Assembly (NCBI GenBank): GCA_041666745.1
Contig: JBAYGI010000006.1
Coordinates: forward strand, 3,474-67,473
Length of the DNA stretch: 64,000 nt
Source of the DNA: Candidatus Magasanikiibacteriota bacterium
Lineage (GTDB): Bacteria > Patescibacteriota > Patescibacteriia > Magasanikbacterales > GWA2-37-8
Direction of reading: 5' to 3'
Shown: one piece after another, positions 8,257-51,540 of the stretch
How the letters are laid out: each line of letters begins with the position of its first letter
Numbering within the stretch: position 1 is the stretch's first letter
Notes under the pieces: model-generated
Told to the model about the DNA's origin: nothing
Databases searched by the model: none
Seen by the model: only the letters and a program-made list of their open reading frames with translations
Translations under genes and position numbers: made by a program

Positions 8257-10651
<2,395 letters not shown>

Positions 10652-15803: not shown

Positions 15804-16391
15804 TTGAAGAGGTTCATTGTCGCAACACTGGCGATGATTGTGGGGTTCTCCACCACAACAGCCGGTGCAGACACATTTTCCGCCAGTCGAGTCAGGATGC
15901 TCATCCATGGCTCCAACCAGTTCAGCGAGCAGTTGGGCGCGTCTGTTCACTTCATTCCGGCTGGAAATCTGCTGGGAGAGGTAGCACCGTTGATCTACGG
16001 CTCGTTCGACTGGACACCGATTCCGGAACTGACAATCAGCCCTACCGTGGGCTGGACGTTCAAGCCGGATGAGATGGTTGTGTCGCTCCGCCTCGCCCCG
16101 AAAATCGGCAAGTTCTGGGGGTGGGTGGATCTTGAAGAACGACCGACGTCCCGTGCATTCTACTGGTTCGTGCAGGCTCAATACCAGGTAACGAGCTTCC
16201 TGCACATCGGTGCCGAGCAAGAGTCATGGGGCGATTTCCACGACTTCAGCACGGCTTCGCACGGTGGCGGCCCGAACGTCCTCCTCCGCTTCGGAAGAAA
16301 CTTCGGCACAGACCTTGCACTACACGCCCGTTCCCTCGGCGGCAGTGCGGTCAATCTGGAGTTCTTTTCCCGGATCCATTTGTTCCTCTAA
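15804..16391 (+). CDS. GC-rich secreted protein, paralog 1 (island C)
   Basis: TTG start after an AAGGAG RBS. Signal peptide MKRFIVATLAMIVGFSTTTAGA. Beta-rich alternating pattern ending NLEFFSRIHLFL. TTGACA promoter at 15709. The ORF-track ATG at 15729 is probably too far upstream. Confidence 0.5.
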   Translation: MKRFIVATLAMIVGFSTTTAGADTFSASRVRMLIHGSNQFSEQLGASVHFIPAGNLLGEVAPLIYGSFDWTPIPELTISPTVGWTFKPDEMVVSLRLAPKIGKFWGWVDLEERPTSRAFYWFVQAQYQVTSFLHIGAEQESWGDFHDFSTASHGGGPNVLLRFGRNFGTDLALHARSLGGSAVNLEFFSRIHLFL

Positions 16392-16470
16392 CCGGTTGCG
16401 CGCTACCGTCCAACAAAGCGCGCAAAATCTTTTTCAACTTAATATATTTAGGTTTAAGAAGATAATAAAA
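16392..16470 (+). repeat. conserved 3' element copy 1 (hairpin ttgcgcgc...gcgcgcaa)
   Basis: About 90% identical over ~80 bp to 19343-19425. Followed by a terminator at 16471-16506. Confidence 0.7.
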
Positions 16471-16511
16471 AAAACCGACTGCCATCTGCGATCGGTTTTT
16501 TTATAAAAATC

Positions 16512-16709: not shown

Positions 16710-16779
16710 TTTTCTGATACAGTATATTCAGGTAACAAGAAACTCGGGACAAATCCGCCGAAAGGGGAAAGCCGTAAGG

Positions 16780-17349
16780 CTACCGAGTCATCTGACCGTC
16801 CACAAGCTGGACGGTTATTTTTTTCTCAAATAATTTAGTTAATTTAATAGTTTGCTCTGTGGAATTATCTGCGTGAGAACGAAATAATCCTGCGATTGCG
16901 TCCGCTAATCTCAAGCCCGCCGACGCTTCGTCCCTTAACAATCTAATTTTCTTTACAGAAATATTTTTATCACGCAAAACCTTTTTTAGTTTTTGTTCAT
17001 ATCGTTTTGACTTTTTACCATCTATAATTATTTTTTTAATATTGTGTTCTATTATTAAATGCTGAAAAATATTTTCAAAAGCAATATTATAATTTATTGG
17101 ATTATTTACAATGGCTAGTTTAAAAGAAAAATCCAAATTACTCACTACAGTAAGAAAACTTGCTCGTTTTTTCCATCCATTTGTTGAACCATAATCCGAC
17201 CAATGAAACGGTTTTATGCATAATAATTTTTCTACTTCAACAACCGCTTCTTCCATTTCTTTGATACTTTTTGCTTGTAAATAAACAAAAGAAATAGTTG
17301 AATGCCCTACTTTTTTATGAATACCTGATTCGTCTATAAAAATTATCAT
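16780..17349 (-). CDS. DUF3800 family protein
   Basis: N-terminal MIIFIDESG signature. Confidence 0.55.
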   Translation of the reverse strand: MIIFIDESGIHKKVGHSTISFVYLQAKSIKEMEEAVVEVEKLLCIKPFHWSDYGSTNGWKKRASFLTVVSNLDFSFKLAIVNNPINYNIAFENIFQHLIIEHNIKKIIIDGKKSKRYEQKLKKVLRDKNISVKKIRLLRDEASAGLRLADAIAGLFRSHADNSTEQTIKLTKLFEKKITVQLVDGQMTR

Positions 17350-19342: not shown

Positions 19343-19425
19343 CCCATAACCGGTCGCGCGCTACCATCCAACAAAGCGCGCAAAATCTTTTTCAACTTAA
19401 TACCTTTAGGTTTAAGAAGACAACA
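19343..19425 (+). repeat. conserved 3' element copy 2
   Basis: Aligns with 16392-16470. Terminator at 19424-19457. Confidence 0.7.
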
Positions 19426-19466
19426 AAAAACCACCCGAGAGAAGGGTGGTTTTTTGTTTATAAATT

Positions 19467-22148: not shown

Positions 22149-22176
22149 TTGTCATTCCCGCAAAAGCGGGAATCTA
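22149..22176 (+). repeat. hairpin repeat family 1, copy b (left terminal inverted repeat of the mini-cassette)
   Basis: ttgtcattcccgcaaaagcgggaatc. Confidence 0.6.
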
Positions 22177-22340
22177 ACCAATATTTTACTATTCTTTCCC
22201 TTTTTTAGCAAACCCGCCTTCGCTAAAGCTACGGCGGGTAAAACAAAAAAATCACCTGGCGGTGAAATAGTAGGGCGTCGGGCAGGGGTGTCATGTCCCC
22301 CTGCCCGACGGAAGTCCCGACAGCTCGCTCGATCACGGAG

Positions 22341-22478
22341 CTACGGGAAACGGTTGCGGTTTCGGGCCTCGGCGTTCATCTCGTACTCATCGTAGCTGCT
22401 GCGGGCGTGGCTGCAGTTGTTGACGAGCTTCTCGCACTGCGCGTCGGTCATGATGTACTCGGTCTCGTTGCGAAACAT
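22341..22478 (-). CDS. 45-aa Cys-containing peptide inside the GC-rich mini-cassette
   Basis: AAGGAG RBS 8 nt before the ATG. Translation MFRNETEYIMTDAQCEKLVNNCSHARSSYDEYEMNAEARNRNRFP. GC about 60%. Confidence 0.35.
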   Translation of the reverse strand: MFRNETEYIMTDAQCEKLVNNCSHARSSYDEYEMNAEARNRNRFP

Positions 22479-22587
22479 GAGAATGCTCCTTGCTCGGGTT
22501 GCTTCCTCCGACCTGCTTCCGCCCCAACGAGCGAATATGACAGGTACAGATAAGAATCATTTTATATGAGAGAGAGATAATAGTCAA

Positions 22588-22612
22588 GATTCCCGTTTCC
22601 ACGGGAATGACA
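22588..22612 (-). repeat. hairpin repeat family 1, copy c (right terminal inverted repeat, inverted orientation)
   Basis: Reverse complement is tgtcattcccgtggaaacgggaatc. Confidence 0.6.
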
Positions 22613-22630
22613 ATAAACAACAAAAAAACA

Positions 22631-22732
22631 AAACCGCCACAGAAAATTACTTTTGAGCGGGTTATGCGCCGAGGCGCATCCTTTTGCCCTCGCGGGCAAA
22701 AAAAGCGAAAAAGTCATTTTCTGTGGCGGTTT
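22631..22732. repeat. R3 structured element copy 1, inside an 18-bp inverted-repeat terminator stem
   Basis: Core 22653-22710 is ttgagcgggttatgcgccgaggcgcatccttttgccctcgcgggcaaaaaaagcgaaa. Flanks aaaaccgccacagaaaat / attttctgtggcggtttt followed by a T-run. Confidence 0.6.
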
Positions 22733-22769
22733 TGTTTTTTACCCATCTTACCTAAAACGCCATATTAGA

Positions 22770-22841
22770 GGTACCGGTGGGAATTGCACCCACGCATAAG
22801 GGTTTTGCAGACCCTTGTCTTACTGCTTGACGACGGTACCA
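22770..22841 (-). tRNA. tRNA-Cys (GCA), atypical T-loop
   Basis: Perfect 7-bp acceptor stem ggtaccg/cggtacc. U73 discriminator (Cys identity). Anticodon loop ctGCAaa. T-loop TGCAATT carries G at position 55 instead of U. Confidence 0.55.
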
Positions 22842-26373: not shown

Positions 26374-26409
26374 TTTCTTTAATTTTATTCAACCGTCCGT
26401 TCCACTTTT

Positions 26410-26472
26410 GTCATTCCCGCGAAGGCGGGAATCCAGTCGCTCGTTACTGTCATCCTGAGTATAGCGAAGGAT
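26410..26472 (+). repeat. hairpin repeat family 1, tandem copies d1 and d2
   Basis: tgtcattcccgcgaaggcgggaatcc plus the diverged tgtcatcctgagtatagcgaaggatcc. Terminator at 26487-26534. Confidence 0.55.
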
Positions 26473-27127: not shown

Positions 27128-27192
27128 CGCGAGTGATCTAAACGCTTTAAATTAAAAAACATCGAAATTAAATTCGGTGTTTTTTTATTCCC
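27128..27192 (+). repeat. R4 direct repeat copy 1 (includes a terminator hairpin)
   Basis: gagtgatctaaacgctttaaattaaaaaacatcgaaattaaattcggtgttttttt. Near-identical to 28951-29010. Confidence 0.7.
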
Positions 27193-28950: not shown

Positions 28951-29010
28951 TGTGAGTGATCTAAACGCTTAAATTAAAAAACATCGAAATTAAATTCGGT
29001 GTTTTTTTGT
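28951..29010 (+). repeat. R4 direct repeat copy 2
   Basis: See copy 1. Confidence 0.7.
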
Positions 29011-29175
29011 TTCCAATTCACCTTTACACAAAACTCGGGCGGTTTTTTCTGCCTCTAGGCAGAAAGAGGCGCATGTACAGTATGTTGCCATAAAACTAGC
29101 AACATGATATATTATGTTTAGCTACAAAAATTAAATTTTTGAGCACAAATGTGCTATATTAACTAAAATTAAAAT

Positions 29176-30078
29176 ATGACGGAAAAACCCTTTCCCCAAA
29201 CTATGGCGAAACCAACACAAGAAACGGAGCCACAACCAGCCGATGTGGACAGACGAGAAGCCGAGATGACCACACTAAGAGAAGCAGTGACCACACTAAG
29301 AGAAGCAGTGGCCACACTACAAGCCAAGATGGCCGCACAACAAGCCAAGATGGCCGCACTAAAAGAAGCAATGGCCACACTGCAAGCCACTGTGGCATCT
29401 TATAGCGAGACCAGGCGCACATCAGAAGTTGTTTCCAAAGCCGAGTTTAACGAGGCAGCCAGAACAATAGAAAAAACATTACTAAAAATAAAAGAAATAA
29501 CCGAGGCATTCAGTACTTGGGCCGACGAATGTGCCGAAATTGCCAAAGAGATATCACATACTACTAACGATGGCTATCTGAAGCTGGTCGATGCATCTGA
29601 TGTGCCCAATGTGGCAAGAGATATTATTACCTGTGCAGAAGAACATTTAAAACGCCTGCATGCAACAATACAAGATGTCTTACAAGACCCGGGCACACCT
29701 TTGAGTTTGGGGTTAATAAACAAATTTCACCCGGATAATTGGTCACCAGAATTATGGCAAAACTTACAGAGTTCTCTTATTCGTTTATTCCTTCACAAAG
29801 TAATGACCGTTAAAAAAGAGGTGTTGATGGCACAAGCTAACAAACTTGGCCTTATTCAAAAAAGCGTACACTTGAACGGTTTAGAAAAGTGGTTTGGATG
29901 CCTAGACAAGTTGAGAGCTAGTGAAGTAAACAAAAAAGACTTTATACCTATATGGCGAGAACGTTTTGCTGGAATGGGAGTGTCGGACGGCCTATATGCC
30001 ACCGGCTTTGACGTTGAAATAGCAACTGGAGACACAGTTGCTTACCGATCACCTCCAACGATAAAAATCAGTGGATAG
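29176..30078 (+). CDS. hypothetical protein with a GC-rich tandem-repeat coiled-coil N-terminus (island F)
   Basis: 21-nt and 18-nt DNA tandem repeats encode TTLREAV x2 and AKMAA x2. GC falls from about 57% to about 40% along the gene. Confidence 0.45.
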   Translation: MTEKPFPQTMAKPTQETEPQPADVDRREAEMTTLREAVTTLREAVATLQAKMAAQQAKMAALKEAMATLQATVASYSETRRTSEVVSKAEFNEAARTIEKTLLKIKEITEAFSTWADECAEIAKEISHTTNDGYLKLVDASDVPNVARDIITCAEEHLKRLHATIQDVLQDPGTPLSLGLINKFHPDNWSPELWQNLQSSLIRLFLHKVMTVKKEVLMAQANKLGLIQKSVHLNGLEKWFGCLDKLRASEVNKKDFIPIWRERFAGMGVSDGLYATGFDVEIATGDTVAYRSPPTIKISG

Positions 30079-37854: not shown

Positions 37855-37949
37855 TTTAAAAAAATATTATTTCAATTGAGCGGGTTATGAGCCCGAGGCT
37901 CATCCTTTTGCCCCCGCGGGCAAAAAAAGCGAAATGAAATAATATTTTT
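37855..37949. repeat. R3 structured element copy 2, inside a 16-bp inverted-repeat terminator stem
   Basis: Core 37877-37932. Flanks aaaaaatattatttca / tgaaataatatttttt. Compensatory C-G to A-T change in the inner hairpin relative to copy 1. Confidence 0.6.
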
Positions 37950-37954
37950 TTAAA

Positions 37955-51509: not shown

Positions 51510-51540
51510 AGAGTTTGAAGTTTAATTTAATTGTTGTTTT

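Follow-up and report, generated by a model that had tools for sequence, protein, structure and literature searches.

REP, BIME and REPIN sequences, which are associated with RAYT (Y1 HUH) transposases, are short intergenic hairpin repeats that occur in multiple copies and in either orientation, often at the 3′ ends of genes; they are vertically persistent yet dynamic, and a single domesticated enzyme is believed to act on them as folded single-stranded DNA (PMC3333891, PMC2817692). The Correia, ERIC, RUP and bcr1 MITEs are non-coding intergenic elements of ∼80–130 bp with inverted ends; bacterial MITEs are co-transcribed with adjacent genes, as long RNA hairpins that may terminate or be processed, and they vary in presence and absence between relatives (PMC10969869, PMC3184786). 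Hairpins can themselves be targets, as hairpin loops or palindromes are for IS1397/ISKpn1 and for the IS110-family elements found in REPs (PMC1525189, PMC12288879). In sponge mitochondria, hairpin repeats have repeatedly invaded the intergenic regions of a compact genome; these belong to another lineage and have another sequence, and the accessible text of that account reports no conserved three-way-junction core (PMC2800124).

The repeat described here, R3, is closest in kind to MITEs and REPINs, with the conservation pattern reversed: its core is invariant and its arms are free. REPINs have conserved palindromic arms (REPs, with a GTAG-type head) around a free, variable loop, whereas R3 has no such arms; what it conserves is the core, and its arms are copy-specific. 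R3 resembles MITEs in being short, intergenic, non-coding, hairpin-forming and patchy between relatives. Classical MITEs, however, combine terminal inverted repeats that are conserved with a target-site duplication and a cognate IS, whereas R3 has semi-conserved inner arms of only ∼8–12 bp, no consistent target-site duplication, no known IS, and an RNA-like covariation in its core. Like the loop-targeting insertion sequences, it prefers intergenic palindromes and terminators, at their structured centre or edge, but those elements are autonomous, 1–2 kb or more in length and equipped with their own enzyme, and R3 is 78 nt and encodes nothing. Group IIC introns also insert at terminators. Nor does R3 have the organization of IS200/IS605-derived palindrome-associated elements, with two similar subterminal hairpins, no inverted ends and a conserved 5′ target tetranucleotide: its two internal hairpins, P2 and P3, are unrelated in sequence, its arms are paired, and its T-rich left flank pairs with the right.

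A repeat family in Candidatus Magasanikbacteria

R3 is a family of ∼60 known copies of a small folded repeat at the tips of intergenic hairpins. The family is new to the literature, with no description found in the literature searched, and is confined to Candidatus Magasanikbacteria. Two copies lie in the window, by which we mean the whole 64,000-nt stretch analysed here, itself part of a Magasanikbacteria MAG (Table 1). A first-pass annotation of this DNA had recognized a core common to both, and we confirmed that core to within 1–2 nt. The 34-nt 3′ half of the core matched twice in the window, against 0 expected from 100 shuffles. With filters off, a covariance model of the family scored these two copies at 102 and 89.7 bits and found no other in the 64 kb; the next-best matches, at 17.6 bits or less, are ordinary hairpins.

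Table 1. Positions of R3 copies, their parts and associated sites in the window
Feature	Position	Strand	Basis or remark
tRNA-Cys(GCA)	22768-22840	-	ARAGORN and Rfam
R3 copy 1, whole hairpin (118 nt)	22623-22740	+	sequence, fold, covariance model
Copy 1 outer 5′ arm: A-run and GC-rich stem CCGCCACAG	22623-22642	+	terminator-like host part
Copy 1 outer 3′ arm: CTGTGGCGG and T-run	22721-22740	+	partner of 22623-22642
Copy 1 inner arms AAAATTACTTTT / AAAAGTCATTTT	22643-22654 / 22709-22720	+	paired with each other
Copy 1 core (54 nt)	22655-22708	+	sequence and covariance model
Copy 1 junction GAGCGGGTT	22655-22663	+	tandem G·A partner GA at 22655-56
Copy 1 GC	22657-58	+	pairs with GC 22705-06
Copy 1 P2 hairpin; CC	22664-22679; 22680-81	+	
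Copy 1 P3 hairpin; AAAGCGA	22682-22701; 22702-22708	+	
R3 copy 2, whole hairpin (100 nt)	37855-37954	+	sequence, fold, covariance model
Copy 2 core (55 nt)	37878-37932	+	sequence and covariance model
Copy 2 junction GAGCGGGTT; P2; CC	37878-86; 37887-37903; 37904-05	+	
Copy 2 P3 (loop CCGC); AAAGCGA	37906-37925; 37926-32	+	
Empty site, gene junction filled in L024	47585-47600	-	
Empty site, rpsG–fusA spacer (31 nt)	51510-51540	-	no hairpin
Second hairpin repeat	9668-9696; 22149-22177; 26408-26436	+	
Second hairpin repeat	22586-22615	-	

The arms of copy 1 form 32 bp (22623-22654 with 22709-22740) with a single T·C mismatch (22648/22715), the 5′ arm containing an A-run and the 3′ arm a T-run; the hairpin folds at −63.4 kcal/mol (z = −9.4 relative to shuffled sequence). 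Those of copy 2 are A/T-only, 23 nt (37855-37877) and 22 nt (37933-37954) long with one bulged A, and its fold has a z of −5.9 relative to shuffled sequence. Both hairpins fold with equal strength on either strand. The flanking inverted repeats had been described as perfect, mutually unrelated and 18 and 16 bp long. They are real and mutually unrelated, but they are longer than that, reaching the core, and each has the one imperfection given above.

Both hairpins had also been taken for terminators. Copy 1, which lies 27 nt downstream of the minus-strand tRNA-Cys gene and serves as its 3′ terminator, looks like a bidirectional intrinsic terminator: it has the CCGCCACAG/CTGTGGCGG stem, the A-run and the T-run of a Rho-independent terminator (a simple terminator scanner scores no loop longer than 8 nt). 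For copy 2 the label is doubtful, since its arms are A/T-only and it fills the entire rnpA–yidD spacer, from the rnpA stop codon (37955-57) to 2 nt before the yidD ATG (37850-52), with both genes on the minus strand. These two genes and the adjoining rpmH and dnaA were identified by Pfam; exact-match look-up of the YidD and L34 proteins of the window returned no record. The cumulative GC skew turns near 40 kb, which places both copies on the same replichore, with the plus strand antisense to host genes.

Between polA and the R3/tRNA-Cys hairpin lies a GC-rich cassette (22180-22560, ∼60% GC against ∼38% for the window), bounded by inverted copies, at 22149-22177 and 22586-22615, of the repeat TTGTCATTCCCGC-AAAA-GCGGGAATC. 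Features of its minus strand are a promoter-like site (22587-22559), a terminator-like hairpin (22265-22252) and a 45-aa ORF (22478-22341) preceded by an AAGGAG box; this ORF matched only itself among 5.8 billion proteins. The cassette is absent from L016, L053 and L084 (collected loci are given L numbers), and L082 has a different GC-rich insert in the same place, with a 150-aa ORF. A second family of hairpin repeats, ATTCCCGC-GAAA-GCGGGAAT with TTGTC/CTAA flanks, sometimes lies next to R3 (Table 1); elsewhere it was seen beside the R3 copy of L029 and in the rnpA–yidD spacer of L093. Further repeats in the window are a pair of 84-nt direct repeats (16389-16472 and 19347-19430, 93% identity) with a DUF3800-II RNA between them (Rfam RF02961, 57.6 bits, 16732-16797); a 46-nt repeat (27147-27192 and 28969-29014, 96% identity) that contains a terminator-like hairpin and whose adjoining 40 nt are also similar (27119 and 28942); and tandem 21-nt repeats at 29255-29389 (∼3–4 copies, 79–96% matching, Tandem Repeats Finder).

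We scanned 185,579 species genomes (GTDB) with a pattern for the 5′ half of the core. This gave 31 loci, of which 28 were real, all in eight Candidatus Magasanikbacteria MAGs with up to eight strict-pattern copies per MAG; some R3-bearing MAGs are mislabelled Gammaproteobacteria. Many further copies came from scanning metagenomes with a pattern for the 3′ half of the core. A covariance model built from 54 distinct copies made 77 matches on the collected loci, reducing to 60 distinct rows from at least nine genomes, and we estimate ∼10–20 copies per genome. The copies are short (80–125 nt), non-coding, multi-copy and dispersed. With ∼60 distinct copies and strong covariation, the circumstance that the first-pass annotation had named as pointing to a chance duplication, only two copies without covariation, clearly does not apply. 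Three scans of viral contigs gave chance matches only, and the covariance model found no copy there. Rfam gave no R3 match when the whole window was searched at the gathering threshold; near the two copies, a search at E ≤ 10 gave only generic miRNA-hairpin noise and CRISPR-DR57. The latter was rejected, at 20.5 bits against a threshold of 39 and with no tandem array.

An invariant junction on covarying stems

The R3 unit is ∼78 nt, a 54-nt asymmetric core with semi-conserved inner arms of ∼12 bp. On the strand that reads GAGCGGG, the core is a three-way junction whose elements run, 5′ to 3′, P1 (the outer stem), a tandem G·A step, a 2-bp GC/GC helix, GGGTT, P2, CC, P3 (loop TCGC) and AAA, and then back into P1. 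The tandem G·A step is sheared and sets 5′-TGAGC opposite 5′-GCGAA; TGAGC/GCGAA is a classical context for sheared tandem G·A pairs in DNA and RNA. The junction strands (GAGCGGGTT / CC / AAAGCGA) are invariant or nearly so, including in copies found independently of the motif.

Across 60 distinct copies, in an alignment fitted to the covariance model, 96.4% of cells are paired and double changes occur in 22 of the 30 pairs, with P2, P3 and the outer stem all covarying strongly. None of 500 shuffles attained the observed covariation values, and when pairing partners were slid, pairing fell to 39–52%. RNAalifold on a plain MAFFT alignment independently recovered P3 and inner P1, with double changes in 9 of 15 predicted pairs. 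Even the GA/GA step is replaced, by TT/AA (two Watson–Crick pairs), in two copies of a variant sub-family. The change in the first inner hairpin from atgCgc/gcGcat to atgAgc/gcTcat, on which selection for structure was originally argued, is real and is one case of this family-wide covariation: the pair is AU in 44 and CG in 10 of the 60 distinct copies. The argument itself is supported on the larger sample, and in copies sampled without the motif the junction is kept while the stems are replaced.

The majority of copies came from patterns that imposed half of the core, so neighbouring proteins were used as a second route to relatives. M23 peptidase homologues (79–80% identity) led to L082 and L084, which carry R3 after tRNA-Cys in the same orientation as in the window. 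RnpA homologues led to L090 and L091 (74–75% identity), with R3 between rnpA and yidD, and to L093 (61% identity), with a copy upstream of rnpA. In these five unbiased copies the junction strands are unchanged except for one G to A in L090 (GAGCGGATT), and the P3 loop is TCGC in four, with TCAC in L091. The stems, by contrast, are replaced. P2 of L093 is entirely different (TGACCGC/GCGGTCA versus ATGAGC/GCTCAT), and P3 changes from TTTTGCCC/GGGCAAAA to TTTCGACC/GGTCGAAA, TTTCTCCC/GGGAGAAA or CTGAGGCC/GGCCGAGG through compensated substitutions. Third-codon identity in the adjacent rnpA is just 47–71% among these genomes; the unpaired R3 positions are therefore under constraint. Gene conversion is probably not what holds the junction constant, since P2 and P3 differ among copies of one genome. 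That resident orthologous copies keep the junction while adjacent synonymous sites are close to saturation speaks against an inert selfish insert; junction invariance in these resident copies points to selection on each copy.

Tandem G·A pairs form at three places, on the GAGCGGG strand only: at the core base, in P3 of sub-family 2 next to U·G wobbles (L005b, L037b, L063b, L090, L091 and L093), and in the outer motif of the long form described below. On the opposite strand each tandem G·A becomes a mismatched loop. The better-structured GAGCGGG strand is antisense to host genes at both conserved window sites, and this, together with the occurrence of R3 in either orientation to transcription, would favour recognition at the DNA level.

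In the arms, G·T exceeds A·C by 42:5 (46:11 with a transition-blind alignment). The excess is confined to arm positions 6–13 (34:2), where one arm has conserved T's, and beyond position 13 the ratio is 11:8; limited in this way it is weak evidence for the acting strand, and conserved sequence in one arm, rather than pairing, may be its cause. We therefore dropped the G·T/A·C count as proof of the acting strand. Compositional skew was rejected as its source because the bias is equal in '<<' and '>>' contexts.

Hairpin-tip position and turnover between relatives

Every R3 copy is intergenic, and its hairpin usually takes up nearly the entire spacer. The neighbours are housekeeping genes (S7/EF-G, RF2/TsaC/KsgA, SecY, RecG, L11, FtsH and others), and a search among them for a partner gene found none that recurs beside non-orthologous copies. 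Orientation contexts were 24 '<<', 11 '>>' and 9 '><' (convergent). An A-run and a T-run both flank 16 of 59 copies, most commonly between convergent genes. The other copies are in other intergenic hairpins or inside operons, or belong to hairpins that are missing as a whole from the empty site.

After tRNA-Cys, the terminators of two relatives do lack the insert: L016 and L053 have a short plain terminator there (AAATCTCCAG-gct-CTGGAGATTT and AAATCCCT-tttta-AGGGATTT, respectively). The filled stems are AAATCGCGCAG in L084 (3′ side CTGCGCGATTT), AACATCCCAG in L082 and CCGCCACAG in the window, and each encloses a 78-nt insert made up of 12-bp inner arms and the core. The filled outer stems resemble those of the plain terminators; L084 and L016 agree at ∼9 of 11 positions, a short similarity. 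Our basis for treating the outer arm of copy 1 as the host part is the pair of orthologous stems, in L082 and L084, and the two plain terminators, in L016 and L053.

Elsewhere the same inner unit recurs within different stems. Four unrelated A-run/GC-stem/T-run terminators share an identical inner unit, AATTATCATTT-core-AAAGATAATT, at least nine terminators contain TTGTCTTT-core-AAAGATAA, and sub-families are found that have identical inner arms and different outer stems. The inner ∼9 nt of each flank are informative, and beyond ∼9 nt flank conservation is at background. Outer arms are copy-specific, though some non-orthologous copies share long arms. A long form of R3 has the outer motif AGAGTTGAGT...GCGAAACGA. 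L050 has, on its minus strand (∼330-372 in plus coordinates), a 42-nt hairpin AGAGTTGAGT-stem/loop-GCGAAACTC with no R3 core, which may be another hairpin repeat in its empty form, R3 being nested in the loop of the filled one. Together, the tRNA-Cys, shared inner-unit and long-form findings support loop insertion, though not universally: at two sites, A and D, the empty site has neither hairpin nor arms, so insertion into a pre-existing stem is not general. We also rejected the idea that the arms are copied from the target site, since site D when empty lacks either arm and similar arms occur at other loci.

Sites are filled, empty or inverted among related genomes. The rpsG–fusA spacer is filled in L023, L029 and L070 with the core in gene direction, filled in L030 with the core reversed and other arms, and empty in the window. 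At the junction filled in L024, the upstream gene takes its stop codon from the R3 left arm; this site is empty in the window, L029 and L030. In the tsaC–ksgA spacer, L055 and L074 carry the same hairpin in opposite orientations, flipped as a unit, in flanks 86–96% identical. The rnpA–yidD spacer has R3 in the window, L090 and L091, with retention in at least eight distinct genomes, and is without it in L089 (81% RnpA identity), L092, L093 and L094. The long arms shared by the non-orthologous L029 and L053 copies indicate that whole hairpins are copied to new places.

A consistent target-site duplication was not found, the flanks being inverted rather than direct; one filled/empty pair permits duplication of TAA, which is not general. 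No mobilising enzyme or autonomous relative was found in ∼600 kb of R3 loci or among neighbouring genes, and no half-sites flank an ORF or cargo gene in these ∼600 kb. Variant sub-families and nested insertions were seen instead. In L036:620-775 (minus strand) and L072:4877-5019 (plus strand), the core is split after GGGTTA by a ∼90-nt element with its own hairpin, a nested insertion of a different small repeat.

At L051:573-653, the left arm and flank of L039 are joined to the right arm and flank of L073 (rnpA–yidD) exactly at the core; this short metagenome contig is a recombinant, or else a chimera that the repeat produced during assembly. Between L023:3100-3131 and L070:6240-6271, whose flanks are 99% identical, the left arm differs at four of eight adjacent positions (GTGGCGAT versus GTAGTACT), a cluster more suggestive of one patch event than of separate point mutations.

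Competing explanations

R3 is patchy between relatives, yet its unpaired core is unchanged, and we take it on these grounds to be real. Our preferred reading, held tentatively and at somewhat less than an even chance, is that R3 is a lineage-specific, non-autonomous, MITE/REPIN-like mobile DNA module of Candidatus Magasanikbacteria, residing at hairpin loops; its mobility would account for the patchy distribution. The first-pass annotation had offered a small mobile element targeting terminator loops as one of two possibilities, and this is the better of the two. It agrees with the multiple copies, the presence and absence between relatives, the flip in place and the plain tRNA-Cys terminators, but its emphasis on terminator loops was too narrow, since just about one third of copies have A-run/T-run flanks. 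Weighing against a mobile module are the failure to find a mobilising enzyme or a consistent target-site duplication, the two empty sites that lack the arms, and the selection on each copy to which the junction points.

The mobile module might work as follows. The 78-nt unit would lodge at the apex of an intergenic hairpin, an intrinsic terminator in about one third of cases and another palindrome otherwise. Host stem and inner arms would merge into one long hairpin, still able to act as a terminator or intercistronic hairpin, and the whole hairpin could later be lost, copied elsewhere or inverted by way of its own arms. Most likely, a putative trans-acting protein would recognize the invariant junction and loop, reading the element as a folded single strand or as an extruded cruciform, much as a REP-associated or other structure-specific DNA enzyme does.

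The main rival is that R3 is a host-selected, cis-acting RNA module, a three-way junction atop a long stem, with mobility merely its mode of spread; it could, for example, stabilise 3′ ends or intercistronic regions, provide a processing site, enhance termination or act as a platform for an RNA-binding protein. An unpaired junction and loop that stay invariant among covarying stems are the signature of a functional structured RNA, and the copies always lie in transcribed spacers, tightly packed between genes. R3 is kept after tRNA-Cys in three lineages, and its retention between rnpA and yidD fits as well. Most loops on the minus strand read GCGA or GUGA (both GNRA) and CUCG, UUCG or CUUG, and would suit RNA of that strand. 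Against such a module, orientation is mixed, and has flipped at a single site, whereas an RNA partner that is sequence-specific could recognize just one strand. The tandem G·A and U·G pairs, moreover, belong to the strand that is antisense at both conserved window sites, R3 is dispensable in close relatives (L089, L016, L053 and the rpsG–fusA spacer of the window), and Rfam has no match even at E ≤ 10. We regard such a module as rather unlikely. The other first-pass possibility, in which terminators acquired a functional RNA module as a graft, finds no support in that form, because 24 copies lie in '<<' and 11 in '>>' contexts.

A bolder proposal, unlikely in our estimate, is that the core is a new functional fold, either the cis-recognition structure of an undescribed CPR system for hairpin-loop insertion (through an ssDNA or RNA intermediate) or a new small ribozyme or aptamer, with a junction that would be selected in every copy while hitch-hiking on mobile hairpins.

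If R3 were instead a double-stranded DNA site for a chromosomal protein (of the nucleoid, segregation, recombination or uptake), with the hairpin incidental, its function would be orientation-independent, and the ∼20 conserved unpaired positions and lineage-specific distribution would fit. Compensated replacement of P2, P3 and the arms is not expected of such a site, nor is its constant position at the centre of a palindrome, and ∼10–20 copies per genome are too few for an uptake signal; we consider this improbable.

We give slightly less credence still to a new self-cleaving ribozyme or aptamer riding on a mobile hairpin, in the way that repeats carry hammerhead or twister ribozymes. Invariant junction strands of 9, 2 and 7 nt with freely covarying stems, in dispersed multi-copy elements of either orientation, are in keeping with one, and the P3 loop TCGC is complementary to the 3′ junction GCGA, so a pseudoknot is possible. 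That loop–junction pairing shows no covariation, however (L004 has TCAC with GCGA, L016 has TCGC with GTGA), there is no similarity to any Rfam ribozyme or riboswitch, and the order and lengths of the junction strands are not those of a hammerhead; compared by eye, the junction presumably fits none of hammerhead, twister, group II domain V, k-turn and retron msr.

Least probable of all, and very much so, is an inert relic or chance duplication whose covariation arose without selection by template-switch correction of quasi-palindromes (intrastrand template switching is an established mutational mechanism that can keep palindrome arms perfect): it is possible for the arms only, where the outer parts lack a wobble bias and one arm of the L023/L070 pair has four changes within 8 nt, and it is already contradicted for the core, since correction cannot explain unpaired positions that stay invariant at such low rnpA third-codon identity, nor ∼60 copies in at least nine genomes.

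CPR/Patescibacteria genomes are tiny and usually repeat-poor, so a family of ∼10–20 copies per genome with RNA-like invariant junctions and covarying stems is unexpected. In practical terms, R3 may cause chimeric joins in metagenome assemblies, as perhaps in L051, and is a sequence marker of its lineage. Biologically, it provides a handle on how palindrome arms stay complementary while fully diverging; on whether a structure-specific DNA or RNA enzyme operates in these organisms, for which the motif can be used as bait in phylogenetic profiling; and on the remodelling of terminators and intercistronic hairpins in CPR bacteria.
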